This document shows, one piece after another, positions 20,635 to 59,270 of a stretch of DNA of 64,000 bases. The position numbers and the translations under genes were made by a program. The DNA is from Actinomycetota bacterium. GTDB lineage: Bacteria; Actinomycetota; UBA4738; HRBIN12. Numbering within the stretch: position 1 is the stretch's first letter; each line of letters starts with the position of its first letter. The notes below the pieces were generated by a model, which saw nothing but the letters and a program-made list of their open reading frames with translations, searched no databases and was not told the origin of the DNA. The DNA is taken from NCBI GenBank assembly GCA_038249195.1, contig JBBRWM010000001.1, forward strand, positions 395,489 to 459,488, in the 5' to 3' direction.

Positions 20635-20692
20635 GCCGGGAACGAGGACAACAGGAGAAGAAGGGGAAGCAGCCGCGACATGAACGGCTCAC

Positions 20693-32303: not shown

Positions 32304-32443
32304 TGTCCTACGAACTACCGACGAGATGATAGGGCGTTCGGGCTACGCGTAGCAACTAGCCGAAGGACCAATATCTGGCATCCGCCCTTCGGACCGCTGG
32401 TCAAACGCTTCAGTTCCCTGGTCGCGGGGCCGATACCACAGAA

Positions 32444-34269: not shown

Positions 34270-35205
34270 CTAGCTGAAGCTCTGGAAGATGCGGATGGCG
34301 CCGGGCCCGATGATGACCACGAACAACGCCGGCAACACGCACAGCACGAGCGGGAAGACGATCTTCACGGGGGTCTGCTGGGCCTTCGCCTCGGCTCGCT
34401 GCCGACGCTTGATGCGGAGTTGTTGCGCCTGCGTACGCAGGACGCTCGCGATCGAAACGCCGAAGACGTCGGCCTGGATCATCGCGAGGGCGAAGGCGTT
34501 GAGCTCATCCACATCGGTGCGGTCCGCCAGGTGCCGGAACGCGTCCGAGCGTGGCACGCCCAGCTGGATCTCCTGGAGCATGCGCGCGAACTCCGAGGAA
34601 AGGACGCCGGGAACGTTGTGGACGACCTGCGCGATGGCCGCGTTGAGCGACAGCCCTGCCTCGACGCTGATCGTGAGCAGGTCCAGTGTGTCCGAGAGGG
34701 TCCGGAGGATCTCGCGCTGGCGTTCCTCGACCTTTCGGTTCAAGACGGAGTCCGGCACGACGAATCCGACGAAGGTCAGCAGCCCCATGATGACGATGGC
34801 GACGAACGGTGTCGGGTGCATGATCCCGATGGCGGCCAGGCCGCCGACCACGCCCCCGACGGCGCCGATGACCTTGAACGCCAGCACGCGCTCGGCGTCC
34901 CACCCCAGCGGGCTCCCCGCGACCTGGAGCTTCTTCGTCAATCGCTCGCGAGCATCGATCGGAGTGATGCGGCGCGCGATCCTTCCGGCGCGCGACACGA
35001 TGGGGACCATGACGCGCGAGCCGAAGCCCTCGCTCATGGATCGTTCGCGCAGGTCGACCGGCTGGTCGAGCGAGCCCGACACCTGCGACTCGAGCATGCG
35101 CACGGCGCGCTTGCGCTCGGATTGTGCGCCCTCCAGGGCCACGCCGACGAGCAGGATGGCGAAGAACACACTGGCGACGGCGAGCACGAGCAAGATCTCA
35201 GACAT
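34270..35205 (-). CDS. tadC: Tad pilus assembly membrane protein TadC (T2SS F family)
   Basis: T2SSF-family helices (LRTLSDTLDLLTISVEAGLSL...). Follows tadB with an 8-nt overlap. Confidence 0.8.
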   Translation of the reverse strand: MSEILLVLAVASVFFAILLVGVALEGAQSERKRAVRMLESQVSGSLDQPVDLRERSMSEGFGSRVMVPIVSRAGRIARRITPIDARERLTKKLQVAGSPLGWDAERVLAFKVIGAVGGVVGGLAAIGIMHPTPFVAIVIMGLLTFVGFVVPDSVLNRKVEERQREILRTLSDTLDLLTISVEAGLSLNAAIAQVVHNVPGVLSSEFARMLQEIQLGVPRSDAFRHLADRTDVDELNAFALAMIQADVFGVSIASVLRTQAQQLRIKRRQRAEAKAQQTPVKIVFPLVLCVLPALFVVIIGPGAIRIFQSFS

Positions 35206-36211
35206 CGATGTTCACGATCTTTCTCATCCAGGCGACCCCGACGCCGAGCAGGCCCAAGGCGCCGCCCAGCATGAAGAGGCCGATTCGGGTAGTGACGAGG
35301 AGCCCGATGTAGCTGGGGTTGGACAGGAAGAGGTAGGTACCGATCCCGACCGGCAGCAAGGCGAGCACCCACGCGGACAGCCGACCCTCGGCGGTGAGGA
35401 CCTGGATCTGTCGGCGCATCATCGCCCGCTCGCGCAGCGTGTCGGCCACGTTGTCGAGGATCTCTGCCAGGTTCCCGCCGACCTCGCGCTGGATGTTGAC
35501 GGCCAGGACCGCCCAGCGGAAGTCATCGCTGCCCACGCGCTCGGCCAGGGCCTCGAGGGCCTCCTCCGTGGCGCGGCCCAGCCGGATCTCGGCCACAACG
35601 CGCTGGAACTCCAGGCAGGCCGGCTGCGGGATCTCCTTGGCGACGGTGTCCAGGGATTGCATGAAGCTGTGGCCGGCGCGCAACGAGCTCGCCATGATGG
35701 TGAGGACGTCGGGCAGCTGATCTCGCAACTTCTCCGCGCGCTTCTTGATGGCCGTCCGCAGGAAGAACCATGGTCCCAGGCCGGCAACCCCGCCCACGAG
35801 GAGCGCCATGGACGGTTTGCGCAGGAGTGCCGCGCCGAGCACGGCCCCCAACAGGGCCGCGCCCACGGAGATCACGACGAACTCCCCGACACGGATGCTC
35901 ATGCCGGCCGCTTCGAGCTCCGCATCCACGCGCGCGCTGAACCCGCGCGAGTCCGCGAAACGACGCCCGAACGAGCTCACACGCTCGGGGATCCATCCGG
36001 TGCCGGGGCGGTTGTCCGAGGCCGCCACCGGCTGGGAGTTCGGCCGAGCCACGGAGGCCATGCGCGCCGCCATCTCGCGGTCGCTCTTGGCCCTGATCGC
36101 CGTGCCGAACAGCAGCCAGCCGACGACGAACGCGGCCAGGCCCACCAGGGCCACGACCACGATCTGGGCCATCGGACCCGTCCAGAATTCGACCGCGAGC
36201 AGCGCCTGCAT
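35198..36211 (-). CDS. tadB: Tad pilus assembly membrane protein TadB (T2SS F family)
   Basis: T2SSF domain (LPDVLTIMASSLRAGHSFMQSL...). 1-nt overlap with the tadA stop. Confidence 0.8.
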   Translation of the reverse strand: MQALLAVEFWTGPMAQIVVVALVGLAAFVVGWLLFGTAIRAKSDREMAARMASVARPNSQPVAASDNRPGTGWIPERVSSFGRRFADSRGFSARVDAELEAAGMSIRVGEFVVISVGAALLGAVLGAALLRKPSMALLVGGVAGLGPWFFLRTAIKKRAEKLRDQLPDVLTIMASSLRAGHSFMQSLDTVAKEIPQPACLEFQRVVAEIRLGRATEEALEALAERVGSDDFRWAVLAVNIQREVGGNLAEILDNVADTLRERAMMRRQIQVLTAEGRLSAWVLALLPVGIGTYLFLSNPSYIGLLVTTRIGLFMLGGALGLLGVGVAWMRKIVNIDV

Positions 36212-37530
36212 CAGCGGCTCCCCTTGGGCTCCAGGGCGAAGGTCTCGGCGTCCACGAAGACGCCGCGCTCCGCGAGCTTCTCGATGAACTTCGGCCGCAA
36301 CCCGGTGGACTTCAGGCGCCCTCGCATGCGGCCCTCGTCGTCGATCCCGGCCGAGTAATCGAAGGCGAACAGGTCCTGCAGCGTGATCACGTCGCTCTCC
36401 ATGCCCGCGACCTCGGTCACGTGCGTGACCCGGCGCGTGCCGTCCTTCATCCGGGACTGGTGCACGATGAGCTGGATCGCCGAGGAGATCTGCTCACGAA
36501 CGGATCGGGGCGAGAGCTCCATCCCGGCCATCATCGTGATGGTCTCCAGGCGTGAGAGCGAATCTCGCGGCGAGTTCGAGTGGATGGTGCTGATCGAGCC
36601 GTCGTGGCCCGTGTTCATGGCCTGGAGCATGTCGAGCGCCTCGGGGCCACGACACTCGCCGACCACGATGCGGTCGGGCCGCATGCGCAGCGAGTTCCGG
36701 ACGAGGTCACGGATCGTGACCGCCCCCTTGCCTTCGATGTTCGGCGGCCGCGCTTCGAGCCGCACCACATGCGGCTGCTGGAGCCGGAGCTCGGCCGCAT
36801 CCTCGATCGTGATGATGCGCTCGTCGTCGGGGATGAACGACGAGAGCACGTTCAGCGTGGTCGTCTTCCCCGCACCGGTCCCGCCGGAGACCATCATGTT
36901 GATGCGGCCGCGAACGCACGCGTCCAGGAACTTCGCCGTGGCGGAGCTCATGGTGCCGAACTCGACGAGGTCCTCGGCCTGGTAGGGGTCGGCGGCGAAC
37001 TTGCGGATGGTGAGCGCGGGACCGTCGACGGCCAGCGGCGGGATCACGGCGTTCACGCGGGAGCCGTCCGGGAGCCGGGCGTCCACGTACGGCGATGCCT
37101 CGTCAACGCGTCGGCCCACCTTGCCCACGATCTTGTCGATCGTGCGGCGCAGCTGCGACTCGTCGTGGAACTTCGTGCCGGTCCAATACAGCTTCCCCGC
37201 GCGCTCGACATAGATGGTGTCCCACTTGTTGACCATGATCTCCGTGACCTCGGGGTCGCGGACGTAGGGCTCGAGCGGGCCGAGGCCGAGGACGCTGTCG
37301 CCGATCTGACGCACGATCAGCAGCTTCTCCTGCGCGGAGAGCGGGCCTTCCTCGTCGTCGAGCAGCTCGCGCAGGCGCTGGTGGACCAGGCCCTCGAGCT
37401 CGCTGTCGGACAACGTCGCGTCGTACAGGCGCGGTCCGAGCACCTCGACGAGGCGCTCCTGCACCTTCACGCGGACCTCCGAGATCCGGTCCTTCTGCTG
37501 GGCCTTCGCCAGCCGGTCTGCCAGGGACAT
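36211..37530 (-). CDS. tadA: Tad pilus assembly ATPase CpaF/TadA
   Basis: VirB11/CpaF-family ATPase: Walker A GGTGAGKTT, Asp box, Walker B IVVGECRG, His box TGHDGSISTIHSN. Confidence 0.9.
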   Translation of the reverse strand: MSLADRLAKAQQKDRISEVRVKVQERLVEVLGPRLYDATLSDSELEGLVHQRLRELLDDEEGPLSAQEKLLIVRQIGDSVLGLGPLEPYVRDPEVTEIMVNKWDTIYVERAGKLYWTGTKFHDESQLRRTIDKIVGKVGRRVDEASPYVDARLPDGSRVNAVIPPLAVDGPALTIRKFAADPYQAEDLVEFGTMSSATAKFLDACVRGRINMMVSGGTGAGKTTTLNVLSSFIPDDERIITIEDAAELRLQQPHVVRLEARPPNIEGKGAVTIRDLVRNSLRMRPDRIVVGECRGPEALDMLQAMNTGHDGSISTIHSNSPRDSLSRLETITMMAGMELSPRSVREQISSAIQLIVHQSRMKDGTRRVTHVTEVAGMESDVITLQDLFAFDYSAGIDDEGRMRGRLKSTGLRPKFIEKLAERGVFVDAETFALEPKGSR

Positions 37531-37545
37531 GTGGGGTGGCCTCCT

Positions 37546-38757
37546 CTAGCTCCGCGAGAACAACTTGCGCTTCTTCTTGGCCGCCGCGTCCGCGTCGACC
37601 TCGTCCGATACGAGCTGGCCCGTGAACTTCGCGGCGAGCTGTCTGACCGCCACCGCCACCTCGGACCCCGGCTCATCCGTGACGACCGGACGACCCTTGT
37701 TCAAGGACGTGGGGACCAGACGACTCGACGGGATCATCGCGTCAACCTGGATCTTCATCACGCGCTCGACGTCGGTGGCGTCCAACCCCACCTTGCTGTC
37801 CGCGCGATTCAGCACGACGCGGAACCGCTCGCGGGGCAGGCCGATGGTGAGCAGGGTGTCGAGCGCCTTCGAGAGGTGCTTGACGCCGACGACGTCGAGG
37901 CTGGTGACGAGGCAGATCGTGTCCGACAGGTCGAAGCACACGAGCGCAGAGTCCGAGTAGTCGACGGAGGCGTCCACGACCACCCACGGGAAGTCGTTGC
38001 GCAGTCCCCGCAGGAACTTGCCGATCGATTCGCCCGCCGGGGCCTCCGCGGCCGGGTCGGGGGGCGCGCCGTACGCCCACAGGTGGTCGCCCATCTGGGC
38101 TCCCACCTCGCGGATCCGTTCGTGCGTGGCGCCTTCCCCGAGCTCCATCAGCTCGGGGATGTTCGTTGCGGGCTCCGTTCCGAAGTACGTGAAGACGTCG
38201 CCCATGTCGAAGTCGAGGTCCACGGCCGCCGTGTCCTGACCGGAGGTCTCTGCGATGGCTGCGGCGAGGTTGGTGGTGAGGAACGTCTTGCCGGCTCCGC
38301 CCTTGGAGGAGAACACCGAGATGATCCGCCCTCGCTGAGACTGATGGCTCGTCGAGGAGCTCACGCCCACGGACCGCAGGTTCGACGCCCAGACGATGGC
38401 TCGCTCGACGGCGTCCCGCAGCTCTTCGGTCCCCTGGGTCATGTCCACGACGTCGCGGATCCCCGCACGCATGGCGGCGGGAAGGAGTCCGTTCCACGTG
38501 TGGTCGCGCACGAGGACGATCGCGGTGCCGGGGGCCTGACGGCCCACGAACTCCGCCAGGCCGAGCGCATCGGGCTCCTTGACCTCCGGCGAGAGCACGA
38601 GCACGTCGACGGGGTGCATCCCGTGGATGAGGATCTCCTCGGCGGCCGTGGCGGACTGCACCCAGCCGACCTCTTCGGATTCGACTTCCAGCGATCGTGC
38701 GAGCTGCTGGCGGAACGACTGCGGCGTCCCGACGGCGACGACGCTTGCATCGGTCAT
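37546..38757 (-). CDS. cpaE: CpaE/TadZ-like pilus assembly protein (degenerate REC + MinD/ParA-type ATPase)
   Basis: N-terminal receiver-like domain without the canonical acidic pocket. Deviant Walker A SSKGGAGKT typical of CpaE/MinD. Confidence 0.8.
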   Translation of the reverse strand: MTDASVVAVGTPQSFRQQLARSLEVESEEVGWVQSATAAEEILIHGMHPVDVLVLSPEVKEPDALGLAEFVGRQAPGTAIVLVRDHTWNGLLPAAMRAGIRDVVDMTQGTEELRDAVERAIVWASNLRSVGVSSSTSHQSQRGRIISVFSSKGGAGKTFLTTNLAAAIAETSGQDTAAVDLDFDMGDVFTYFGTEPATNIPELMELGEGATHERIREVGAQMGDHLWAYGAPPDPAAEAPAGESIGKFLRGLRNDFPWVVVDASVDYSDSALVCFDLSDTICLVTSLDVVGVKHLSKALDTLLTIGLPRERFRVVLNRADSKVGLDATDVERVMKIQVDAMIPSSRLVPTSLNKGRPVVTDEPGSEVAVAVRQLAAKFTGQLVSDEVDADAAAKKKRKLFSRS

Positions 38758-39020
38758 GGTGCCACCTTCCCAAGCCCTCGTTCGGCGATGGACCGCGGAC
38801 GCGACCGGAGGTCGACGTGCCGCTGTCCACTCCTATCGGCGCTCCGGACGAGTGGTTGAGCCGGGGATGCTGCGCCCGATGGCTCGCGGACCTGGCCTGT
38901 GCTGATCTTCATGACTCCCACCTTGTCCGACGGTGCTGATGGGTTCGCCGGCCCCTCGCTCCCACGGGGATCCCGACCCGGGAGAGCGAGCGACCGGCGA
39001 GGTCGCTCTGAGCCTGGTGC

Positions 39021-39224
39021 TTACGCGCCGGCCACCGCGTTGCCGACCGTCTGGAACTTGTCCTTGGACGACGTTCCGAGGAAGGTCACGGCTCCGATGA
39101 TCACCACGGCGATCAGCGCAACCATCAGCGCGTACTCAACCGCGGTCGCCCCGCCCTCTTCGGTGGCGCGAAGCTTCAGGTCGGCCCACCACGTGGTGAG
39201 GCCGGTGTAGGTGCGAAGGAACAT
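39021..39224 (-). CDS. flp: Flp/Fap family pilin
   Basis: Flp motif EEGGATAVEYALMVALIAVVIIGAV in a 67-aa precursor. Confidence 0.75.
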   Translation of the reverse strand: MFLRTYTGLTTWWADLKLRATEEGGATAVEYALMVALIAVVIIGAVTFLGTSSKDKFQTVGNAVAGA

Positions 39225-39358
39225 TTTTCACCCTCCTTCATCGAGGATCCCGTCCGACCGGCGACCCCCTTTGGTCGCCGGAGCGGTCCTTCGTTACCGC
39301 TTGTCGACACCGTAGGGGTGCGGACTTGAGCAGGGAATTCCGCGTTTCCCTGATGGTG

Positions 39359-39377
39359 CGTACGTATCCATACGTAC
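39359..39377. promoter_or_regulatory. AT-richer inverted repeat cGTACGTAT-cc-ATACGTAC upstream of flp pilin gene
   Basis: Perfect 8-nt arms with a 2-nt spacer in an unusually AT-rich stretch, about 135 nt upstream of the flp start and just downstream of the last LuxR regulator gene. Confidence 0.4.
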
Positions 39378-39399
39378 ACAGCTTCGAGACGTTGCCCCG

Positions 39400-40101
39400 C
39401 TACGGGGCGATCGTCCCGACCGTGACGAGACCCGCTTGGGCCGCCAGGCGGATGGCCGCCAGACGGCTGCCGACCCCGAGCTTTCCGTAGATCCTCGCCA
39501 GGTGCGTCGTGACCGTGCGCTCCCGCACCCCGAGGCGGCCGGCGATCTCCCGGGCTGTGAGACCCTCCGCGGCCACGCTCAACACCTCGCGCTCCCGCTC
39601 GGTGAGCTTCACGTCGAGATCCCGCCGCCGTTCGAGCCCATCGGCGATGTGACCCACCGCGGATGGCTCGGGGCCCGCGAGCACCATCTCGCGGTCCGCC
39701 GCCTTGCGCAGCGATTGCAGGAACACCACCGGGTCGATGTTCTTGTCCACGAACCCGTCCGCGCCCACGAACAGGGACCGGGACACGAGGGACGCATCGG
39801 CGTTCGCGCCGCAGCCAAGCACGGCGTGGCCGGGGAACTGCTGGCGGAGCGTGCGGATGAGCCAGAACGAATCATGGGCGCCCGAGAGCCCAAGGCCCAC
39901 CAGTACGACCACGCGCGAACGGCGGACGCGCTGGATGGCGTCCAGGCACAGATCCGCGTCGCCCGCCTCGGCGAGGACCTCCATGTCGGGACGGTCGTCG
40001 ATCAACATCGCCAGCCCCGCCCGCACGACGGGGAGCGGGTCGACCACGACCACGCCCAGCCGGCGTTTGGGGGCGGGGTGCTCATGGTCGGGGCGCGACA
40101 T
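39400..40101 (-). CDS. LuxR/NarL-family response regulator (receiver lacks phospho-acceptor Asp)
   Basis: REC-like N-terminus (LGVVVVDPLPVVRAG...RVVVLVGLGLSG, no Asp at the expected acceptor position) plus a C-terminal HTH_LuxR (LTEREREVLSVAAEGLTAREIAGRLGVRERTVTTHLARIYGKLGV). Confidence 0.75.
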   Translation of the reverse strand: MSRPDHEHPAPKRRLGVVVVDPLPVVRAGLAMLIDDRPDMEVLAEAGDADLCLDAIQRVRRSRVVVLVGLGLSGAHDSFWLIRTLRQQFPGHAVLGCGANADASLVSRSLFVGADGFVDKNIDPVVFLQSLRKAADREMVLAGPEPSAVGHIADGLERRRDLDVKLTEREREVLSVAAEGLTAREIAGRLGVRERTVTTHLARIYGKLGVGSRLAAIRLAAQAGLVTVGTIAP

Positions 40102-40233
40102 GATGCCTTTCGTGTTCGAGCGGGGAGCCCGGCGAGCCCGAGCGCCGTTCCACCTATCGGCACGGCGGCGCCCGGGGATGAGCCGGAGCCTCGCGGGGAG
40201 AGATCGATCCGGGCCGGGGGAACGCCGGAGGCC

Positions 40234-40929
40234 TCAGCCGAGATCGAGCAACCCGAGCTTCGCGGCCTTGGACACCGCCTGCACCCGGGTGCGGACCCCG
40301 AGCTTCCGATACAGCTTCGCGACGTGCGTTTCCACGGTTCGTGGCGAGATGCCCAGGCGCGTGCCGACCTGGTGCATCGTGAACCCCTCGCTGATGAACC
40401 CGAGGATCTGTTGTTCCCGGGGGGTGAGGGTCGCCTCGATCGCGGAGCCCTCCCGCGTGCGCCGCGCGAACACCCCGAGCTGCATCACGGCGGCCTGCTC
40501 CAGATCGGGCGCGACCACGCGATCGCCCGCCGCCACGCGTCGGATCGCATCGCCCACGGTGCGCAACCCGTCGGCCTTGTCGAGACAGCCCGTCACGCCC
40601 GATCGAAGGATGTCGAGGATCGTCGCGCCGTCGGACCGCCCGCTCAAGACGAGCACGCGCGTCGCGGGCGCCATGGCGAGGACGGCCCGGATGACTGCGA
40701 GCCCGTCGCTCGCCCCGTCGAGGTCCATCACGAGGACCTCCGGCTCGAAACGAATGCAGAGGTCGGCCGCGAGCCCTGCGTCGTCGACCTCGCCGGCGAC
40801 GTCGAGCTCGGGCGCGCCCTCGCACGCCAGGCGCACGACGCCGCGGACCGCCGGGTGCCCCCCCGCGATCGCGACCCGGATCGTGCTCGCCGGCGCCCCC
40901 ATGGGGTGGAGGCTACCCCGCGGTTTCAC
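40234..40929 (-). CDS. LuxR/NarL-family response regulator (receiver lacks N-terminal acidic pair)
   Basis: REC (IRVAIAGGHPAVRG...LVMDLDGASDG...GCLDK) plus HTH_LuxR (LTPREQQILGFISEGFTMHQVGTRLGISPRTVETHVAKLYRKLGV). GTGA overlap with the upstream regulator gene. Confidence 0.75.
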   Translation of the reverse strand: MKPRGSLHPMGAPASTIRVAIAGGHPAVRGVVRLACEGAPELDVAGEVDDAGLAADLCIRFEPEVLVMDLDGASDGLAVIRAVLAMAPATRVLVLSGRSDGATILDILRSGVTGCLDKADGLRTVGDAIRRVAAGDRVVAPDLEQAAVMQLGVFARRTREGSAIEATLTPREQQILGFISEGFTMHQVGTRLGISPRTVETHVAKLYRKLGVRTRVQAVSKAAKLGLLDLG

Positions 40930-41588
40930 GCCGTTCGGGAGCCGGCACGCGCGTGTCGCCAGATCATCCGCACGGCCTCCACCTTGGTATGCACACCCAA
41001 TTTGGCCAGGATGTTCTTGACGTGGCTCTGAACGGTGAGCGGGCTGATGCCGAGCTCGAGCGCGATATCGGCCGTCGCACGCCCCTCGGCGAGCGCGCGA
41101 AGGATCTCGTGCTCGCGCTGGGTCAACATCGCCAACCGCTCGGGCCCGGTGGGCTCCGGGAGGGCGTGGCGGAGTCGATCGACGAGCCGAGGCAGATCCG
41201 CGGCGGGAAGCACGAGCTCGCCGGCCGCGGCTCGGCGGAACACGTCGATCAGGGTGCGGTCGCGCTGCGGCGGCAACATCCCGCAGGCGCCGGCCGCGAG
41301 CGCCAGGGTGACGGTGTCGGGGCCGGCGAGCTGTGAGCTCGCGAGCACCCGGACGAGTTCATCGGCGTCGCGGATCGCGTTCACGATCTCGGCCCCACGC
41401 CCGTCGTCGCGGTCGAGGTCCACCACGACCACGTGGGCGAGGCCATCGTGAACCGCCTCGAGCGCCTCCTCGGAGTCCGCGACTGGCCCGAGCACGCGGA
41501 TCGGACCACGTCGAGGCAACGCCAGCAGCAAGGCCTGGGTGAGACCCGGACTCTCGTCCACGACGAGCACGCGGATGGTGGCGATCAC
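40926..41588 (-). CDS. LuxR/NarL-family response regulator
   Basis: REC (IRVLVVDESPG...VVVVDLDRDDG) plus HTH_LuxR (LTQREHEILRALAEGRATADIALELGISPLTVQSHVKNILAKLGV). The conserved Lys of the receiver appears to be missing. Confidence 0.75.
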   Translation of the reverse strand: MIATIRVLVVDESPGLTQALLLALPRRGPIRVLGPVADSEEALEAVHDGLAHVVVVDLDRDDGRGAEIVNAIRDADELVRVLASSQLAGPDTVTLALAAGACGMLPPQRDRTLIDVFRRAAAGELVLPAADLPRLVDRLRHALPEPTGPERLAMLTQREHEILRALAEGRATADIALELGISPLTVQSHVKNILAKLGVHTKVEAVRMIWRHARAGSRTA

Positions 41589-41670
41589 CCCGTAGACATC
41601 GGCACGGCGGCGGCCTCATCTGAATCGGCGCCGGGATGTTCGTCGCGACCGCACGCGAGACACTGGCGGG

Positions 41671-43719
<2,049 letters not shown>

Positions 43720-45066: not shown

Positions 45067-45936
45067 TCAGCGTCCGAGGAACCGCTCCGCCAGATGCCGC
45101 GGCATCTGCGCGAGCTTCCCCCAAGGCTGGTAGCGGGCGTTGTCCCGCAGGAACTCGGCTCGGGCCTCCCCGAACCCGGGCCAAGCCCGGATCGTCTCGT
45201 CGAAGCGGGCGGCCGCCCACGCATAGAGCTCGAGGTCGAGCGCGTTCTGTGCTCGGATGTGATCCAGGTCGTCCATGGAGAGCGAGCCGCGGCGGTCGCG
45301 CCCCGGATCGACGTTGACCGATACGTATCGGAGCTTGCGCCAATCGAAGGCTCGCCGCATCAGGACGAGCGACTCATCGAAGCGCTCGGTCAGGCCGACC
45401 ACGGCGAAGGCTCGCTCGAGGTTGGCCTTGGCGTGCACGAGCATCGTCGACGTGCAGCCGCCGAACGACGTGCTGACGTCGCCGGCGAACGCACGGGTCT
45501 GACTGTTGTCCATCTCGAGGGAGATCCCGCTTCGCACGTACGAGGCGAGGTCCGGGAACGCCTTCGCCTCCTCGTGCAGGAGATGGCGCTCGTGTCGTTT
45601 CGCGTGATGGAACTGGGACGCGATGAGGTCGAGCGGCTCACGCAGCAACGTCACGTAGGTGGCCGGCCTCGGCACCACGTCGTGGAGGCCGAACGTCATG
45701 TGACCCATGATCAGGCGGGGGCGGGTCCGTTCCGCCTCGGGGAGGGCGGCGAAGTAGTCGATCGCGCCGTCGCGCCGCAGGCGTCCGGGCACCACCGTCG
45801 GCGCCCTGAGCTCCATGACCTCGGCGGGAGGGAACTCCTTGCGGAGCGCGCGCCGCATCGTGGCTCCGGCCGTCTTCCCGACATGAAGGAAGATGACGGT
45901 GGCGTCCTCCGCGATAGGGTCGTGACTCAGTGACAC
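45067..45936 (-). CDS. Sulfotransferase (Sulfotransfer_2/Golgi-type fold, HxxKTGGT PAPS-binding motif)
   Basis: 5'-PSB-like motif VIFLHVGKTAGATM near the N-terminus. Overall length and pattern fit family-2 carbohydrate sulfotransferases. Confidence 0.6.
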   Translation of the reverse strand: MSLSHDPIAEDATVIFLHVGKTAGATMRRALRKEFPPAEVMELRAPTVVPGRLRRDGAIDYFAALPEAERTRPRLIMGHMTFGLHDVVPRPATYVTLLREPLDLIASQFHHAKRHERHLLHEEAKAFPDLASYVRSGISLEMDNSQTRAFAGDVSTSFGGCTSTMLVHAKANLERAFAVVGLTERFDESLVLMRRAFDWRKLRYVSVNVDPGRDRRGSLSMDDLDHIRAQNALDLELYAWAAARFDETIRAWPGFGEARAEFLRDNARYQPWGKLAQMPRHLAERFLGR

Positions 45937-47048
45937 GGTGTGGGCACCGCGGACGCGTCGTGGAATTGGCCACCGCGCTCGGGGATGAACCGCCAGTCGT
46001 AGCCATCGCGGTGCAGTTGCAGCGTAAGGACCCCGAAGCTGTTGTCGTTGCTCGCCTCGCTGTTCGCGGCGCGCCTCGAGCTCGGGAACCTCGCATGGCT
46101 GGCGCCCCCGGTTCCCACGATGAACTCACGGATGCCGTTGGGCCTGCGCACGGCGTTCGGCGTCTGGCGAGCGAAGCGCTCGTACACGTGCTCGTGTGCA
46201 TTCAGGACGACGTCGACGCCCCGTCGGTAGAGCAGCCGCCAGATGGCATCGTAGGTCGGATCGCTTCCGTGCACGCCCGAGGAGAAACGTGGCCAATGCC
46301 AGAAGGCGAGCGTGCACCCGAAGGTTCGCTGGGGGTGGGTCGCAAGATCCGCCGCGAGCCAGGCGAACTGGCGCGTTCCAGGGGTGCAGCCTTTGGCCTT
46401 CACACAGTTGCCGTTGAGCGCGATGAAGTGCCAGCAGGCGCTGCCGTGCCCCGGCCGGCAACCCTGCGGCACGTTGAAACTGTAGAAGGCGCCCGAGCCG
46501 GGGGTCGGTCCCCGATCCGGTCCCTTCAATGCGGCGAAGTAGGCGAAGAACCCGTTGGCGCTCCCGGGTGGGTCCTGGCAACCCGTCGCCCCGGGGGCGC
46601 TCGCCGTGGTGCGGTAGTCCTTGTCCCCCACCACGGGCTTCGTCACCGCGAACACCCGGCCCCACGTGGGCCGGTACGAGCGACGGAACGCGGACAGGCC
46701 CCCGCACGTGTACTGCGTGTCACCCAGCGCCAGCACCGTTCGGTATCTGGCATGGGTTCCACGCAGCAGGAGGTTCGAAACCGCTTTCATGTGACAACCC
46801 GTGGCGGAACCGCGTCCCCTGTTGAAGGCGGGGTTCGACGGATCGCAAGCGATGTTTCCCGCCGCCGCGATCACGGGATCGTGCTTGGACACGTGCACGC
46901 GGGGGCGCTGGTGGAGGAGGCTCGAACCGCTCGCCCTTCCCGCAGGCGCCGCGCTCGTGATGAGACCGACCATGGCCGCGAACGAAAGCAGGAGCGCGGC
47001 GCCGCGCCCGGTGCGCCGTCGCGCGGTTGATGCGCGAGTCGGCGACAC
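45927..47048 (-). CDS. Secreted purple-acid-phosphatase-like metallophosphoesterase
   Basis: N-terminal signal (possibly Tat-like RRRTGRGAALLL). PAP motifs LALGDTQY (GDxxY), VVLNAHEHVYER (GHxHxYER). Confidence 0.75.
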   Translation of the reverse strand: MSPTRASTARRRTGRGAALLLSFAAMVGLITSAAPAGRASGSSLLHQRPRVHVSKHDPVIAAAGNIACDPSNPAFNRGRGSATGCHMKAVSNLLLRGTHARYRTVLALGDTQYTCGGLSAFRRSYRPTWGRVFAVTKPVVGDKDYRTTASAPGATGCQDPPGSANGFFAYFAALKGPDRGPTPGSGAFYSFNVPQGCRPGHGSACWHFIALNGNCVKAKGCTPGTRQFAWLAADLATHPQRTFGCTLAFWHWPRFSSGVHGSDPTYDAIWRLLYRRGVDVVLNAHEHVYERFARQTPNAVRRPNGIREFIVGTGGASHARFPSSRRAANSEASNDNSFGVLTLQLHRDGYDWRFIPERGGQFHDASAVPTPCH

Positions 47049-47391
47049 GCCGACGGCGATCGGGCAACGTCGGCGAGCGCGCCGCCCACCTGCCGCACGA
47101 GGGTCGGGGCGCGGGCGCGCCCGTTCGAGGTGGTTGCCGGGGGTCGAGATCCACCGAGACTAGGGAGCGCCTTCTCGATGTGTCAAGGAGCGGCCGCGTC
47201 CCGCGACCTTCGGCCCCGTGAAGGACCGATCGGCCCGTTGTCGGGCCGATCGACCGCGGCTAGCGTGGTCCCCTCGGGGCGACCCGGCGACGTCATGCGC
47301 CATAAGAGAAGGGTCTCGGAGGGCACGTGGAACCGACGGCGATCACAACCGAACATCCGAGGCGCCGCGCGCCCCTCGGGGAGGGCGCTTG

Positions 47392-48360
47392 ATGGCGACG
47401 CCGGCGACCGGGGCGTCCGCCGACACGAGCACGCTCCCGAACCTGGTGATCGCGGGCGTGGGCAAGGCCGGGACGACCTCGCTCTTCTGGTACCTCGCGC
47501 AGCACCCGGACGTGTGCGCGTCCGACGTGAAGGAGATCCAGTACTTCACGCCGCTCAGCGAGGGCGACGGGAACCTCCAGCCGCTTGCCGCCTACGCCCA
47601 GCATTTCCGCGGCTGGTCGGGCGAGCGCTACCGGCTGGAGGCGAGCCCGCAGTACTTCCACGGCGGGCAGCCCATCGTGGACGCGATGCGTTCCACCCTG
47701 CGGGACCCGCGCGTCATCGTGATGCTTCGCGATCCCGTCGAGCGGCTCTGGTCGCAGTTCCGCTTCATACGCAGCCGCCTCGCCGGCCTTCCCGATGCCA
47801 TGACGTTCGAGGACTACGTGGAGGCCTGCCGCGGCGTGCGCGAGCGGCGCGAACCCTTCTCCCAGGACAATCGTCTGTACTGGACCATCCAGGGCGGCTT
47901 CTACGACGAGTATCTTCAACCCTGGATCGAGGCGTTCGGCGAGGATCTGCGCATCGTGTTCTTCGAGGACCTGGCCGCTGGCCCCGAACCTACGACGGTC
48001 GAGACGTACGCCTGGCTCGGCCTGGACGCCCCCGCGGAAGGCGCCGTCTCCTACTCGGTGCAGAACCGCACGATCCGCTACCGGAGCAAGCTGATCCAGC
48101 GGGCGGCGCTCGCCGCGAACCGAGAGGGTCGCCTGGGCGACAAGCGACGCTTGAAGGAGCCGCTTCGCAAGCTCTATTACGCCGTGAACCGCCGGCCCGA
48201 GGCCGAGCGCATGGCAACGCACACACGGCGAGAGCTCGCCGCGCTGTTCGCGCCCGGCAACGCGGCCCTGGCTCGACGGTTGCGTTCCCTCGGCTACGAG
48301 CGGCCGCCTGCCTGGGTCGCGGACGCGCCGGCAGCCGAGGCCTCGTCCGACCCGGACTGA
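47392..48360 (+). CDS. Sulfotransferase (cytosolic/Stf-type fold)
   Basis: 5'-PSB motif LVIAGVGKAGTTSL and a 3'-PB region (VIVMLRDPVERLWS). The longer ORF upstream (from 47218) adds only Arg-rich low-complexity sequence. Confidence 0.7.
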   Translation: MATPATGASADTSTLPNLVIAGVGKAGTTSLFWYLAQHPDVCASDVKEIQYFTPLSEGDGNLQPLAAYAQHFRGWSGERYRLEASPQYFHGGQPIVDAMRSTLRDPRVIVMLRDPVERLWSQFRFIRSRLAGLPDAMTFEDYVEACRGVRERREPFSQDNRLYWTIQGGFYDEYLQPWIEAFGEDLRIVFFEDLAAGPEPTTVETYAWLGLDAPAEGAVSYSVQNRTIRYRSKLIQRAALAANREGRLGDKRRLKEPLRKLYYAVNRRPEAERMATHTRRELAALFAPGNAALARRLRSLGYERPPAWVADAPAAEASSDPD

Positions 48361-48367
48361 CCTGAGG

Positions 48368-49336
48368 ATGGCCGCCGCCCCCCTCCCCCGCATCCTGTGC
48401 AGCTCGGTGGTCCGATCCGTCCACCAGGGCGAGAGCCACGGCGGCGTCTACCTCGTCGATCTCGGATCGGGCACGTCCGAACAGGTGCTCGACTGGAAGG
48501 ACACGAACATCGACTGGGAGGGAAGAGGGGGCGACCGCGGGCTGCGGGGGATCGCCTTTCACGAAGGCTCGATCTACCTCGCGGCGAGCGACGAGATCTT
48601 CGTGTTCGACCGCTCGTTCAACCGAACCGGGTCGTTCCGCAACCCGTATCTGAGCATGTGCCACGAGATCTTCGTGCAGGACCACCGGCTGTACCTATCG
48701 TCCACCGGATTTGACGCGGTCCTCGAGTACGACCTGTCGCAGGGGGCGTTCACGCACGGATGGAGCCTGCGCTACGCGAAAGCGTGGAAGCTCCGCCGCA
48801 CCTTGAAGCTCAAGATCCCGCCCGCGCTCAGAACGTTCGATCCCAACGAGCCCGGCGGGCCCGCCCGCGGCGACACGAGTCACGTGAACCACGTGTGGAT
48901 CCATGAAGGAGCGTTGCTCGCGAGCGGCACGAAACTCTCGGGCTTGTGGCAGGTGAACGGCCCCGGACTGAAGCGCTACGCGACGGTCCCGTTCGGCACC
49001 CACAACGCACGACCGTTCCGCGACGGCGTGCTCTTCAACCACACGAAGACCGACCGCATCGCGTACGGCTCGCTGGGAGGCGATGTCCTGGCCTCGGTGT
49101 CGATGCCCACGTACGACAAGGATCGTCTCGAGCACGCGGATCTTCCGGAGGACCTCGCCCGGGCGACGTTCGGCCGCGGCCTCACGGTCCTCGCGGACGG
49201 CCGCGTCGTGGGAGGGTCCTCCCCCGCCACGATCAGCGTGTATGACCTGGATGCGGGCGTCCGCGAGACCTCGGTGAACATCACGATGGACGTGCGAAAC
49301 GCCGTGCACGGCCTCGAGGTCTGGCCGTTCGACTGA
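48368..49336 (+). CDS. Hypothetical protein (possible beta-propeller/lactonase-like fold)
   Basis: High-GC3 322-aa ORF with no recognisable motif, embedded in the glycan locus. Confidence 0.45.
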   Translation: MAAAPLPRILCSSVVRSVHQGESHGGVYLVDLGSGTSEQVLDWKDTNIDWEGRGGDRGLRGIAFHEGSIYLAASDEIFVFDRSFNRTGSFRNPYLSMCHEIFVQDHRLYLSSTGFDAVLEYDLSQGAFTHGWSLRYAKAWKLRRTLKLKIPPALRTFDPNEPGGPARGDTSHVNHVWIHEGALLASGTKLSGLWQVNGPGLKRYATVPFGTHNARPFRDGVLFNHTKTDRIAYGSLGGDVLASVSMPTYDKDRLEHADLPEDLARATFGRGLTVLADGRVVGGSSPATISVYDLDAGVRETSVNITMDVRNAVHGLEVWPFD

Positions 49337-49384
49337 GGAGCGTGGTCTTGGTGATCACCACCCGGCGGATCCGTGTTCGTCCGC

Positions 49385-50311
49385 CTACCAGTCGTCGTCG
49401 GAGTAGAACGCCGCGGCGACGTCTGCCGTCGCCGTGCGGATCCGCGCGACCTCCTCGGACGACAGGCGCGCCTTCCACGCGGTGATGGACCTGGCGCTGT
49501 CGCGCCGATGCGAGGCCGCGTCGGTGGTCTCCTCGGGGTTGTCCACGCCGCTGTGCTCCTCGATCGTGCGTTGCACCGAGGGCGTCCAACTGAAGCCGAA
49601 GCGCTCGTACAGGGCGCGGAAACCGCGGACCGGCTCGCGGGAGAGATCCTCGTGGCGCAGGAAGGTCCAGGTCGGTCGCTCGTCGCGGAACCGCCTGATC
49701 TGCATGTGGATGAGGTTCCACAACAGGATCGCCTGATCGATCAGGGGCTGCTCCACGTCGGCGAAGCGCCGGATCTCCTCCTCGTAGGCGCCGAGCTGAT
49801 CGCGCATCATCAGCGGCTGACGCAGGAAATGGTCGAAGGGATGGTCCCAACCCTGCCGCACGATGCTTCGCACGAAGGCTGCGGGGTGGCGGATGAGCAC
49901 GACCACGTCCATCTCGAACGTGTCGGCGAGCCAACCCGCGGAGAACACGGCGATGGGATCCTTGAGCAGCGGCAGCGCGTGTCGTCGACGATGCTCCTCG
50001 GTGGTCCACCAGTCGCGAGCGAATCGAGCGGTGTCCTTCGGCGAACGCAACGAGCGCAGTTCGGCGACCGGCCGGTAGCGGAACGCGAGCGTATCGGCCA
50101 CCGGTCCGCGGAATGCGCCCTCGTTCTCCTCGCACACGAAGGGGAACCAGTAGCGGAAGGGGGCGTTGCAGATGCCGGGTCGCGCCCGCAGGCTGAACGG
50201 CTCCCACAGGTACGCCAGCCGCGGGCGGGGCGTTGCCGCGAGCATCTCACCGACCCAGCCCGTGCCCGATCGGTGCGAACCCGTCACGAGCAAGGGCCGA
50301 GGAGCGTCCAC
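49385..50311 (-). CDS. Sulfotransferase (Stf0-like)
   Basis: N-terminal PAPS-binding loop LLVTGSHRSGTGWV and a sulfotransferase-like C-terminal region. Confidence 0.6.
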   Translation of the reverse strand: MDAPRPLLVTGSHRSGTGWVGEMLAATPRPRLAYLWEPFSLRARPGICNAPFRYWFPFVCEENEGAFRGPVADTLAFRYRPVAELRSLRSPKDTARFARDWWTTEEHRRRHALPLLKDPIAVFSAGWLADTFEMDVVVLIRHPAAFVRSIVRQGWDHPFDHFLRQPLMMRDQLGAYEEEIRRFADVEQPLIDQAILLWNLIHMQIRRFRDERPTWTFLRHEDLSREPVRGFRALYERFGFSWTPSVQRTIEEHSGVDNPEETTDAASHRRDSARSITAWKARLSSEEVARIRTATADVAAAFYSDDDW

Positions 50312-50462
50312 CGCCTCAGGCTACCCGCCCAGGCCCGATACCCCGCCACGCTGCGGACGTCCGTGCGTTCGATATCGGGCAAAGGGCGTACGGCGCGTGG
50401 CCGTTCGACCTGTGGTGAGATCCGGGCGGGCGATGGTACTGTGGGTCGGCCGAGGTACAGCT

Positions 50463-50491
50463 TTCGGCGCACAGGTATCGGCTGCGCCGAA
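50463..50491. promoter_or_regulatory. Inverted repeat TTCGGCGCA-n11-TGCGCCGAA upstream of secreted beta-propeller gene
   Basis: Perfect 9-nt arms about 30-55 nt upstream of the 50520 ATG. Confidence 0.25.
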
Positions 50492-50519
50492 CGCGGCGCC
50501 CACAAGGAGGTTACGTTCG

Positions 50520-51851
50520 ATGCACATCCCCCGACGTTTGGTTCGCGGCCTGGTGGTCGTAGCCATGATCGCAAGTGGGCTCGCGCTCCTGCCAGCTGCA
50601 CCCGCGCTCGCCTTGTCGAACAACCCCGATACCACCTGGATGACCAACGGAAAAGTGTGGGGGACCGCCCAGTACGGCAACGTCCTGTTCATCGGCGGCA
50701 CGTTCACGCAGGTGCGCAGCGCACCCGTGGGCACCTCCGGTGCCACGAAGATCGCCGTCAACAACCTGGCGGCCATCGACATGACGACGGGCCAAGGCAT
50801 CGCGTCCTTCCACCCCGACGTGGCCGGCTCAGGACTGCAGACGGCGCAGATCCACGCGCTCGCCGTGGCGGGCAACACGCTCTACGTGGGCGGGCAGTTC
50901 AGCTCGATCGACGGCTCGCCGCACTACAACCTCGGCGCGATCGACCTGGACACATCGCCGCTGACGGGGACGGTCGATGACTCGTTCACCGCGGAGGTGG
51001 GGGTGCCCGGCGCCTCGAACGAGAACAAGACCTTCGTGTACGAGATCCTCCCCGGCAACGACGGTCTCTACATCGGCGGGGTCTTCACCAAGGTGGACGC
51101 CCTCGGCCGGAGCAAGGCCGCGAAGGTGACGTTCGGCGGTGCCATCGTAAAGACCTGGAAGGTCCTGAGCGTCAACGGCGCCATCCGGGACATGGCGTTC
51201 TCCACCGACGGCCAGACGATCTTCATCGCCGGCGCGTTCAGCAAGGCGAACAAGGTCGCGCACCAGAGCATCGCCAGGGTCCTCACGTCGACCGGGAAGG
51301 ACGACACCTGGAACGTCTCGGGTGTGATCGTGGACAACGGTCCCACGCACTACGGCATGAGCTGCTGGAGCCTCGCCATCACGCAGACGCGGGTGTTCGC
51401 CGGCTGTGGACGCGGCGCCAACTACGCGGCGGCGTTCCGCCTGGACAACGGGGACACGGGGAACAGGACCTGGTCCTTCGGCACCGTCGGCAACGTGCAG
51501 GCCATCGCCCTCACGTCCGATCGGCAGAGCCTCGTCATCGGCGGGCACTTCGGGACGTTCCTCACGCAGTCGGTCTGCAGCAACAAGTACCTGAAGAACC
51601 TCGGGATCCTGAACAACATCTACGGCACGAGCACCCCGAGCCTGGACTGCAGCTTCCTACCACAGTTCAAGGGGCCGAACCCCTTCGGCGGCGTCTGGGA
51701 GATCCAGGTCACGTCCACCGCGATCTGGGCCGGCGGCGAGTTCCACGACGTCAACTGCGACCCCTCGCGTTCGGACACCGGCGGCGGGCCCGGCAAGTGG
51801 ACCTGCACGAACGGTCGCGGCCAGCAAAGCATCGCCCGGTTCACCCTCTAG
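50520..51851 (+). CDS. Secreted beta-propeller repeat protein
   Basis: AAGGAGG RBS 8 nt upstream of the ATG. Signal peptide (LLPAAPALA); about 7-8 repeats with conserved G-G-x-F / LY(V/I)GG pattern (delta-60/SBBP-like blades). Confidence 0.6.
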   Translation: MHIPRRLVRGLVVVAMIASGLALLPAAPALALSNNPDTTWMTNGKVWGTAQYGNVLFIGGTFTQVRSAPVGTSGATKIAVNNLAAIDMTTGQGIASFHPDVAGSGLQTAQIHALAVAGNTLYVGGQFSSIDGSPHYNLGAIDLDTSPLTGTVDDSFTAEVGVPGASNENKTFVYEILPGNDGLYIGGVFTKVDALGRSKAAKVTFGGAIVKTWKVLSVNGAIRDMAFSTDGQTIFIAGAFSKANKVAHQSIARVLTSTGKDDTWNVSGVIVDNGPTHYGMSCWSLAITQTRVFAGCGRGANYAAAFRLDNGDTGNRTWSFGTVGNVQAIALTSDRQSLVIGGHFGTFLTQSVCSNKYLKNLGILNNIYGTSTPSLDCSFLPQFKGPNPFGGVWEIQVTSTAIWAGGEFHDVNCDPSRSDTGGGPGKWTCTNGRGQQSIARFTL

Positions 51852-51853
51852 GG

Positions 51854-52714
51854 GTGAACCGGGTCGGCGCCCCATCGACCCGATCGAGGCCGAGGCGCAT
51901 CGAGGTTCCCAACGACACCCGGGGCACCACCTTCGGCATCGTCACGCCGACGCTGAACGCCGAGCGCTACCTCGAGGACACCCTGCGCTCGATCTGGGGA
52001 CAGGCCTCGGACGCGGTGCGCATCGACCACGTCCTGGTGGACGGCGGTTCGAAGGACGCGACGCTGGAGATCGCTCGGCGGCATCCGACCCGGATCGTCG
52101 TGAACACCGACGACCGGGGGATGTACGACGCCGTGAACCGGGGGCTCGCGATGGTCGAGGGCGACATCGTGGGCTACCTCAACGCCGACGACGAGCTCCC
52201 ACCCGACACGCTCGCGCGCGTTGCGAAGGCGTTCCGGGGACATCCTGACGCCCGATGGCTCATGGGCACCCGGGAGTTCATCGACGGCGACGGCACGGCT
52301 TTCGCGTGGATGACCCCGGTGCCGTTCACGCTGGAGGAATACCTGGGGCTCGGCTGGTCGTGCGTACCGCAAGAGACCGTGTGGATGCGCCGCTCCTTCT
52401 GGCAGCAGGTGGGTCCGTTCGACACCACGTTCCGCAACACCGGGGACTACGACATGTACGCCCGATGCCGAGCCGTCGCGCGCCCCCTGATCCTCAAGGA
52501 CGTGATCGGACGTTTCCGACTGCACGGCGATCAGTTGTCCTTCAACCCCGGCGTGATGGCCGCCGAGAGCCGCCGGGTGCAGGAGAAGAACGGCACCGTG
52601 TCTCGCGCGGGCTGGGTCCGAGGCAAATACCTGAGCCTGCGTCTCAACGCGCGCAACCCGAGATGGCTCCTGGCCAAGAAGACCGGCAAGATCCGCTTCA
52701 CGCCGCAGTCCTGA
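51854..52714 (+). CDS. Glycosyltransferase family 2
   Basis: GT-A motifs FGIVTPTLNAERYLEDTL, DGGSKD, YLNADD (DxD). GTG start just after the preceding stop (start uncertain). Confidence 0.8.
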   Translation: MNRVGAPSTRSRPRRIEVPNDTRGTTFGIVTPTLNAERYLEDTLRSIWGQASDAVRIDHVLVDGGSKDATLEIARRHPTRIVVNTDDRGMYDAVNRGLAMVEGDIVGYLNADDELPPDTLARVAKAFRGHPDARWLMGTREFIDGDGTAFAWMTPVPFTLEEYLGLGWSCVPQETVWMRRSFWQQVGPFDTTFRNTGDYDMYARCRAVARPLILKDVIGRFRLHGDQLSFNPGVMAAESRRVQEKNGTVSRAGWVRGKYLSLRLNARNPRWLLAKKTGKIRFTPQS

Positions 52715-52800
52715 GGCGCTGCCCGGCGTCGACGGCGGTAACGCCGGGGCCCGTATCATCGAACCGGCCGGGGAACGGACCGAAGAACAGGAGCTGCTGA

Positions 52801-56109: not shown

Positions 56110-56255
56110 GCGATCCGTCCCGATCGTTGGGGGCTCGGCCCCGCCGGCCCGTCGTACGCTCGCCCCGCGACCGCCGAGGGACGGGACCCTTGCGGCGTCG
56201 GCGTTGGGTAGCCTGTTCGCGGTCGGGCGCGGCGGGCCCGCGGAAAGGTCTGGGG

Positions 56256-57233: not shown

Positions 57234-57272
57234 CCCGATGACCCACGCCCGCGCCGGCACCGGACGACGAGC

Positions 57273-58970: not shown

Positions 58971-59270
58971 TCCTGCTCCTGACGTGCGGCATCGCGCCCG
59001 GCGGGCGGCGGCCAGGCCGCGCAAGCGCCCATGATATCGGACACGAGCGGCGCTCCGCTCCCCGCTTTGGGCTAACTTCGTGGAGGTTTGTGCCTGTCGC
59101 CCGTCCTAGGTCTTCCGCCGCTCGTGCATCCCCGAAGGGCGAGAGTCCGACCGGGCTGTTGACCCTCCTACGGCGTCTATCGTACGTTTTCGGGCCGAGA
59201 GCACGCCCGCCACCCCGGAGCCGGATCCCGTCCCGTGGCCGAGACACGAACGCGCTGGAGGTTGTTCCCC

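Follow-up and report, generated by a model that had tools for sequence, protein, structure and literature searches.

How might a bacterium control a pilus through response regulators that seem poorly equipped to be phosphorylated and that have no kinase beside them? The question is raised by a Flp/Tad pilus locus in a 64,000-nt stretch of the genome of an Actinomycetota bacterium (GenBank assembly GCA_038249195.1, contig JBBRWM010000001.1, positions 395,489 to 459,488; the whole stretch is referred to here as the window). Directly upstream of its pilin gene, flp, stand three genes (R1, R2, and R3), each encoding a receiver (REC) domain and a LuxR/GerE-type helix-turn-helix (HTH) domain. This cassette is conserved over dozens of uncultured soil Actinomycetota. 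With moderate confidence, we propose that it is a kinase-less cassette dedicated to the Flp/Tad locus, in which a sigma-28-type factor would drive the atypical regulators and these, in turn, would drive flp.

The regulator trio and its receivers

R1 (220 amino acids [aa]; 40926-41588), R2 (231 aa; 40234-40929), and R3 (233 aa; 39400-40101) are intact open reading frames (ORFs) in a head-to-tail arrangement on the minus strand; their G+C content at third codon positions (GC3) has a coding-type value of 0.87 to 0.91. Pfam recognized Response_reg and GerE domains in the three proteins, in agreement with the initial annotation, which had described them by eye as paralogous REC + HTH_LuxR regulators. 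The GerE scores were ordinary (PF00196; 62 to 68 bits). The receiver scores were marginal (PF00072; R1, 33.6 bits; R2, 29.6 bits; R3, 30.0 bits; gathering cutoff, 30.2 bits), with the whole domain covered in each case; as a reference point, the canonical OmpR-type regulator of the same window (15343-16272) scored 107.7 bits as a receiver. NCBIfam gave only sub-threshold matches, to NarL-family equivalogs. The trio directly precedes the Flp/Tad locus, as had been claimed, with R3 ending 175 nt upstream of flp, and a DUF255/thioredoxin gene diverges from R1 at a distance of 82 nt. The GTGA coupling that had also been described held up in part: the stop codon of R1 and the GTG start codon of R2 do overlap as GTGA, provided that this GTG is taken as the start. 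An independent gene call chose an ATG located 27 nt downstream (at 40902; 222 aa), the overlap is not kept in relatives, and R2 and R3 are 132 nt apart.

Catalytic residues were read from phmmer alignments to NarL, VraR, and DevR and from a MAFFT alignment with NarL and CheY (the NarL stretch used there matches the PDB alignment obtained by phmmer). R1 keeps the acidic pair (D11-E12), D57, and S85 and has Pro (P106/P107) at the Lys position. R2 keeps D69, S96, and K118, and its acidic pair is replaced by G23-G24. R3 keeps K120 and has D21-P22 for the acidic pair, G69 for the phospho-acceptor Asp, and C97/G98 for the Ser/Thr. The complete catalytic quintet is thus absent from R1, R2, and R3, each of which lacks at least one residue, and the by-eye calls of a missing Asp (R3), a missing acidic pair (R2), and a missing Lys (R1) were all correct in the alignment. 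The published definition of a pseudo-receiver (PMC12632262) fits all three proteins, and that of an aspartate-less receiver (ALR) fits R3. Independence from Asp phosphorylation is certain for R3 only, which has no Asp at that position; for R1 and R2, it is predicted from sequence alone.

We looked for a kinase by Pfam scans of GC3-supported ORFs across the 64 kb. A single histidine kinase was found, namely, a PhoR-like protein (20693-21895; PAS + HisKA + HATPase_c) that adjoins pstSCA, has an OmpR-family partner of its own (15343-16272), and sits 17.5 kb from R3. HisKA-class kinases pair with OmpR-type rather than NarL-type regulators; the cognate kinases of the latter are mostly HisKA_3-type proteins encoded next to them. 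In three relatives with canonical R1 and R2 (L027, L064, and L069), the ORFs scanned out to 10 kb from the trio likewise included no kinase. Given that no kinase lies near even canonical R1 and R2, the trio appears to be orphan throughout, and the early remark that no kinase is nearby was borne out. A ~400-aa ORF right after R3 in divergent relatives was rejected as a kinase candidate, as Pfam assigned it to the GT87 membrane glycosyltransferases; the upstream ORFs of the same loci were likewise rejected, being ABC transporter and other unrelated genes.

R3 relatives number in the thousands in metagenomes. In a one-genome-per-species set, 181 stretches encode an R3 relative, and the best 80 loci all come from metagenome-assembled genomes of uncultured Actinomycetota (one of them, L005, is 99% identical). 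As determined by local tblastn, the gene order was nearly everywhere Bcp, DUF255 (opposite strand), R1, R2, R3, (insert), flp, (insert), cpaE, tadA, tadB, and tadC. The trio was complete in 68 of the 72 loci with enough upstream sequence (R1 was absent in 4), and TadA was found downstream in all 54 loci with enough downstream sequence. Relatives with R3 proteins that are 47 to 65% identical carry two to five LuxR regulators, still adjoining flp/tad genes; the tad association was observed in every examined relative with at least 47% identity at R3 and not in one of ~40%. These counts and the palindrome found at flp promoters (see below) support the original view that the trio is tied to Flp/Tad. 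Literature searches returned no description of this cassette.

Two of the relatives have additional genes. A 6.4-kb contig (L085, which holds P0132) contains five REC + GerE genes around a Peptidase_A24 prepilin peptidase gene and a GT87 gene and is a still larger LuxR-type regulator cluster in a Tad-related context. In L082 (3116-6400, minus strand; R3, 65% identical), a gene for a 1,094-aa protein that has both adenylate/guanylate cyclase and AAA_16 domains lies between the DUF255 gene and R1.

The mutual identity of R1, R2, and R3 is only 31 to 33%; they are therefore old paralogues rather than products of a recent triplication. R3 is highly conserved. A median of 76% of receiver positions and 89% of HTH positions are identical to the window protein, and its ratio of nonsynonymous to synonymous substitution rates (dN/dS) was 0.04, equal to that of cpaE. 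Asp was present in 0 of 81 R3 orthologues, 72 of which have the quintet DPGGK, and the complete quintet was likewise present in none. A search of 1.84 billion cluster representatives revealed an R3-type family graded down to ~36% identity. It has an (E/D)P acidic pair, mostly Gly/Ala/Ser in place of Asp, and Gly/Ala in place of Ser/Thr; its members also have in common a GADGF(V/I)DK strand and, as recognition helix, ERTVTTHL. Those members that were looked up bear generic names at most. One cluster representative, P0180, has an R3-like Asp-less receiver and an R1-like C-terminal half (recognition helix, LTVQSHVKSILAK); either the paralogues have exchanged domains naturally in this case or the sequence is a chimera produced by the assembly.

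When given a diverse alignment, AlphaFold2 modeled R3 with a predicted local distance difference test (pLDDT) score of 93.7 and a predicted template modeling (pTM) score of 0.80, superseding a model from a shallow alignment (pLDDT, 64.6). In the model, the receiver keeps all five strand-helix units of the (beta-alpha)5 fold, and a linker helix and an HTH of four helices complete the protein. The nearest solved structures according to Foldseek were ChrA, VraR, LiaR, RcsB, and NarL. We therefore regard R3 as a folded, selected pseudo-receiver and not a wreck. Binding of cyclic di-GMP (c-di-GMP) in the manner of VpsT was considered and rejected, since the WLIR of R3 sits in helix 3, off the VpsT motif position, and misfits W[FLM][TS]R.

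Compared with R3, R1 and R2 show an approximately fivefold-higher rate of evolution (dN/dS, 0.20 for R1 against L005 and 0.17 for R2), and the two proteins and their recognition helices are still under purifying selection. Within an orthologue group, the recognition helices hardly vary (90 to 100% conserved in R1 and R2), but they differ among R1, R2, and R3. Asp is present in 55 of 62 R1 orthologues and Lys in 12, which are exactly those with a complete quintet. Among the 71 R2 orthologues, 69 have the Asp and 70 have the Lys, and the acidic pair is variable. The pocket residues of R1 and R2 form a mosaic, with dozens of substitution patterns across species. Complete quintets (DDDTK and EDDTK) were found in both proteins of the most divergent relatives (L027, L029, L057, L064, L067, L069, and others), and the receivers at these loci scored 67 to 90 bits (R1) and 79 to 82 bits (R2), compared with ~30 bits in the window. 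Since receivers as a superfamily generally have the complete quintet, R1 and R2 would have begun as true receivers and decayed in the sub-lineage of the window; a loss of their phospho-chemistry in that sub-lineage is the simplest reading. The degenerate-receiver trio of the initial annotation is thus real in the window, where all three proteins lack quintet residues, and requires revision for the clade, in which the degeneracy is ancient in R3 only and R1 and R2 are canonical in divergent relatives.

Predicted promoters of the regulators and of flp

A motif scan detected sigma-28/WhiG-type promoter motifs, all on the minus strand, upstream of R1 (TTCA-N17-GCCGAT; 41598-41624), in the R2-R3 spacer, where it would give R3 a promoter of its own (CTCA-N17-GCCGAT(AG); 40156-40182), and 78 nt upstream of cpaE/tadZ (CTCA-N16-GCCGAT(AG); 38835-38860). 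These motifs, which mark the likely input to the trio, had escaped notice in the initial annotation. The shared pattern, YTCA-N16/17-GCCGA, equals the reported consensus of WhiG1-clade promoters (CTCA-N16-17-GCCGAACT); the consensus of the WhiG2 clade is T(A/C)AA-N16-GCCGATAA (PMC12871210). When counted within 200 nt upstream of start codons, the pattern was present at R1 in 60 of 65 loci, at R3 in 63 of 77, and at cpaE in 8 of 55 (window included), and at R2 it was found in 0 of 73. The window contains 16 matches, whereas simulated sequence gave 3.5 ± 1.9; as background, 52 matches were counted on the opposite strand in 1.26 Mb. The spacers upstream of R1 and R3 also have an exact 15-mer in common (CGCCGCCGTGCCGAT). 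This repeat was rejected as an operator because the alignment shows it to be the spacer and -10 element of the sigma-28-type promoters. Upstream of R1, the -10 element ends 7 to 27 nt short of the start codon (7 to 9 nt short of the GTG in the window), and a Shine-Dalgarno sequence is lacking, so the R1-R2 transcript is probably leaderless.

Further matches in the window lie at 13387-13412 (minus), 32409-32434 (plus), 54147-54172 (minus), and 55667-55692 (plus). An unannotated 224-aa ORF (12731-13405) has a listed start that overlaps with the motif at 13412, and the motifs at 32409 and 54172 sit in apparent gene gaps.

The R3-flp spacer contains the sequence TACGTATGGATACGTA (site A; 39361-39376, unstranded), located 152 nt upstream of the flp ATG. 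It has the form TACGTA-N4-TACGTA and is readable as a perfect 7-2-7 inverted repeat (TACGTAT-GG-ATACGTA). A 7-2-7 repeat with a heptamer near TACYYMT is the arrangement of high-affinity NarL sites. TACGTA has three copies in the 64 kb, two of which are in site A. With at most one mismatch, site A was found 120 to 162 nt upstream of flp in 56 of 64 loci (exact in 43), and across the 1.26 Mb of related loci, nearly all of the 66 occurrences of the pattern were at flp. It is kept with or without 1.7 kb of genes between R3 and flp, and a relative with an R3 that is 49% identical and with two regulators (one of them R3-like) has GTACGTCG-AA-CGACGTAC at the place of site A. The palindrome pointed out earlier at the flp promoter therefore proved to be conserved and essentially exclusive to flp. 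The one clear hit off flp among the 66 is a second TACGTA-N4-TACGTA just upstream of R3 in L078 (position 9869), where it possibly reflects autoregulation in that lineage.

Alignment of the 64 upstream regions revealed a second conserved element, site B (GGGAAAC-N2-GGAATTCCC; 39333-39350, minus), and, further downstream, the hexamer TACGGT (39309-39314, minus), in which TANNNT is kept and the inner positions vary. This hexamer may be a housekeeping-type -10 element. If it is, site A would be centered at about -66 and site B, overlapping the -35 position, at about -40, which is the geometry of an activator-dependent promoter. In order, the region upstream of flp comprises site A, ~10 nt, site B, ~18 nt, the -10 hexamer, a 5' hairpin, and a strong Shine-Dalgarno sequence. 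The leader contains the hairpins AGCGGT-N8-ACCGCT and CCGGCGACC-N6-GGTCGCCGG (39258-39301, minus); the first stem is conserved as GGCGG...CCGCC, and neither hairpin had a match in Rfam. Directly after the flp stop codon, there is a GC-rich hairpin (GAGCGACC-N5-GGTCGCTC; 38975-39020, minus) that could attenuate read-through into tadZABC.

Other types of flp promoter were considered. A scan for sigma-70 and terminator consensus sequences yielded nothing within 38600-41800. Site B was rejected as the -35 element of an extracytoplasmic function (ECF) sigma factor (GGAAT/GGAAC), as it is, by eye, too far from any CGT-type -10. At flp itself, a sigma-28-type motif was not accepted as the main promoter; all that the window offers there is CTCA-N18-GTCGAC, and relatives have such a motif in only 5 of 68 cases.

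The R3 recognition helix is invariant and R3 is the common denominator of the relatives that keep site A; we therefore assign site A, as its probable operator, to R3. The helices of R1 and R2, which are different yet equally conserved, make these two proteins candidates for site B.

Proposed mechanism and alternatives

In the reading that we favor, a sigma-28/WhiG-type holoenzyme would transcribe R1-R2 and R3 and, in this genome, tadZABC as well, and the input signal would be transcriptional instead of a phosphoryl transfer. An R3 dimer would most likely bind the 7-2-7 palindrome (TACGTAN-NN-NTACGTA), ~66 bp upstream of the predicted flp start, and the co-transcribed R1 and R2 would probably act at the conserved element over the -35 region (site B), alone or with R3. 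By occupying sites A and B, the phosphorylation-free regulators would turn on a strong flp promoter that has a housekeeping-type -10 element and depends on them. The result would be a cascade or feed-forward loop ending in the pilin, with regulation by the abundance of constitutively active pseudo-receivers, which is one of the options given in a 2025 review (PMC12632262). The gene content, missing residues, synteny, motif conservation, purifying selection, and R3 fold are what the data show; which protein occupies which site, whether flp is activated, what sigma factor takes part, and that phosphorylation plays no role are predictions drawn from comparative sequence analysis.

Several observations weigh against it. 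Site A, with up to one mismatch allowed, is missing from 8 of the 64 flp promoters, and a sigma-28-like motif lies nearer to flp in 5 of 68 relatives. No gene for a sigma-28/WhiG or other sigma factor was found within the 64-kb window. The -10 hexamer of flp is itself a prediction from the alignment, and it was by co-conservation that R3 was paired with site A. Finally, R1 retains Asp57 and the acidic pair and R2 retains Asp69, the Ser, and the Lys; residual or unconventional phosphorylation of these two proteins may occur.

These retained residues lead to the first question about R1 and R2, i.e., whether one or both are still controlled through phosphorylation by a distant kinase, which would make them an ordinary orphan two-component branch and leave only R3 independent. 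The phospho-acceptor Asp persists in most orthologues (55/62 for R1; 69/71 for R2), and the complete quintets of divergent relatives imply that a kinase partner existed ancestrally. However, R2 of the window has lost both metal-binding acidic residues and R1 has lost the Lys, the dozens of pocket substitution patterns look like relaxed constraint on catalysis, the receiver scores drop from 67 to 90 bits to ~30 bits, and every lineage examined lacks a kinase near the locus; we consider control by a distant kinase to be decidedly unlikely. The same decay could instead mean that R3 is the sole working Flp regulator, with R1 and R2 as passengers heading for loss. Their fivefold-faster evolution and degenerate pockets would fit such a fate, as would the 4 of 72 loci that lack R1 and the relatives that have two regulators. 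A dN/dS of ~0.2 is nevertheless far from neutral, the frames are intact in 68 of 72 loci, the recognition helices are 90 to 100% conserved, the R1 promoter is kept in 60 of 65 loci, and the flp promoter has a second conserved element, so that loss of function in R1 and R2 strikes us as unlikely, if somewhat less so than a surviving kinase input.

Even with all three regulators at work, they might repress flp, with the palindrome as a silencing operator. Palindromes bound by LuxR-type dimers serve in either role, and sequence leaves the sign unfixed. By the general rules of operator position, however, a site A at about -66 and a site B at about -40 of the predicted start, together with a -35 region unlike that of sigma-70 promoters, have the geometry of an activator-dependent promoter, and repression is accordingly the role that we would not expect, at a level of doubt similar to that for idle R1 and R2. 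The adjacency to tad might also be incidental and the trio might serve other targets, such as the divergent DUF255 gene, which is also syntenic, or the exopolysaccharide and sulfotransferase genes that flank the locus in the window. Given the flp/tad link in 54 of 54 loci, its persistence down to 47% identity with other neighbors changed, and a conserved palindrome that is confined to flp, we find this very hard to credit.

The activating, flp-dedicated cassette that we favor also admits a more elaborate form, which we offer tentatively and with considerable doubt. The trio could be a three-part, phosphorylation-free coincidence detector built from two-component output proteins, in which R3 homodimers and hetero-oligomers of R1 and R2 (or of either with R3) assemble on both flp operators and are delivered by a c-di-GMP-controlled WhiG-type sigma factor; a hetero-oligomeric module had already been suggested in the initial annotation. 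If this were true, the clade would preserve, species by species, the stepwise change of R1 and R2 from true receivers into pseudo-receivers after sigma control replaced kinase input, and the WhiG-WhiI/BldM sporulation circuit of Streptomyces would be linked to an ancestral pilus/adhesion circuit.

Neighboring genes and comparison with known systems

The Tad locus of the window is minimal (34270-39224, minus strand) and consists only of flp (39021-39224; a 67-aa Flp/Fap pilin; PF04964, 50.1 bits), cpaE/tadZ (37546-38757; Pfam CbiA/ParA), tadA (36211-37530; T2SSE), tadB (35198-36211; T2SSF), and tadC (34270-35205; T2SSF), after which comes a sugar transferase gene on the same strand. Homologues of TadE, TadG, and RcpC were found nowhere in the window by tblastn with the proteins of relatives, and no scanned ORF of the window matched the Peptidase_A24 prepilin peptidase. 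Many relatives have TadE, TadG-like, and RcpC/CpaB genes between flp and cpaE (e.g., L031, 12659-15432; L027, 11177-13589). The N terminus of CpaE/TadZ (residues 12 to 117; 37546-38757, minus) gave a weak receiver match (E = 0.003), which fits the atypical receiver-like domain of TadZ and would be a fourth degenerate receiver at the locus. In 53 of the 80 relatives, a gene for a ~490-aa polytopic membrane protein with no Pfam match lies between R3 and flp; inserts at this place were located in L002 (10709-12205) and L031 (10675-12138), both on the minus strand, and in L047 (2841-4067), L053 (1147-2373), and L064 (10650-11864). Some divergent loci have a GT87 membrane glycosyltransferase gene there too, and the insert genes may point to glycosylation of the Flp pilin.

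Elsewhere in the window, a phosphate/polyphosphate cluster (8213-21895) contains a NUDIX/His_Phos gene, a gene for a CHAD-CYTH protein, ppk1, genes for a PHO4 transporter and a PhoU-like protein, pstS, two pst permease genes, and the genes for the OmpR-type regulator and the PhoR-like kinase mentioned above. A polysaccharide locus (45067-59024) is unusually rich in sulfotransferase genes (45067-45936, 47218-48360, and 49385-50311). As it also encodes a Wzy-like polymerase, glycosyltransferases, and a protein resembling Wzz/tyrosine kinases, its product may be a sulfated exopolysaccharide.

Among characterized proteins, BldM and WhiI of Streptomyces offer one comparison. WhiG transcribes whiI, the product of which is an atypical orphan regulator of the NarL type; WhiI has neither the Lys nor one Asp of the acidic pair and forms a heterodimer with BldM; the BldM homodimer binds a 16-bp palindrome, and the BldM-WhiI heterodimer binds a non-palindromic site (PMC4125116). 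In other actinobacterial families, BldM homologues and further response regulators are predicted WhiG targets (PMC12871210). The trio resembles this pair in being orphan REC + LuxR regulators with no adjoining kinase and in losses like those of WhiI (the Lys and one acidic Asp; compare R1 and R2). Going by its conserved motifs, the trio may also be expressed from sigma-28-family promoters, the mode of control described for the Streptomyces pair (PMC12871210). It differs in having three adjacent genes versus two unlinked ones, a pilin target versus sporulation genes, and a putative operator of the form TACGTA-N4-TACGTA versus TCACcCgnncGgGTGA, and R3 lacks the Asp altogether. Neither BldM nor WhiI was among the PDB sequence matches for R1 to R3.

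PprB of Pseudomonas aeruginosa (PMC3510237) is, like R1 to R3, a NarL/LuxR regulator encoded at a tad locus, and it controls flp/tad expression. PprB, however, is a classical regulator with an adjacent kinase, PprA, whereas the present locus has no kinase and three regulators with degenerate receivers. Pseudo-receivers make up ~6% of bacterial receivers, commonly with LuxR/GerE outputs (Bourret et al. 2025, PMC12632262; Maule et al. 2015, PMC4395418). R1 to R3 belong with this class in that they are recognized as receivers but have an incomplete set of the five active-site residues, R3 being an ALR. Unlike the class in general, they form a conserved three-gene cassette for which a target promoter can be identified and an input promoter is likely, and within a single clade the pockets of R1 and R2 can be seen at different stages of decay. 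In Rubrobacter, type IV pilus genes are under the control of WhiG (PMC8325347), and sigma-28-family promoters stand at pilus clusters in Rubrobacter and Actinoplanes (PMC8325347, PMC12871210), much as a motif stands before tadZABC here. In those genera, the sigma factor acts directly on type IVa pil genes; here, the motifs lie mainly before the regulators, and flp has a different, regulator-type promoter.

Taken singly, the ingredients were already known: NarL/LuxR-family proteins, pseudo-receivers including ALRs, PprB as a regulator of this family at a tad locus, and WhiI as an atypical regulator driven by WhiG. New are the conserved three-gene, kinase-less, flp-tied cassette, the large R3-type Asp-less family, the defined candidate operators, and the stepwise decay of two receivers within one clade. 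Flp/Tad pili serve in adhesion, biofilm formation, and possibly DNA uptake, and the cassette would give a first regulatory handle on them in a large group of uncultured soil Actinomycetota. How bacterial pseudo-receivers are switched on and off is largely a mystery (2025 review; PMC12632262). The cassette provides a compact and widely conserved test case, with one obvious target promoter, two candidate operators, a plausible sigma-28/WhiG-type input, and natural orthologue variants that span fully canonical to fully degenerate receivers. The comparison suggests that other members of the phylum control pili by the WhiG-to-atypical-regulator logic that Streptomyces applies to sporulation.

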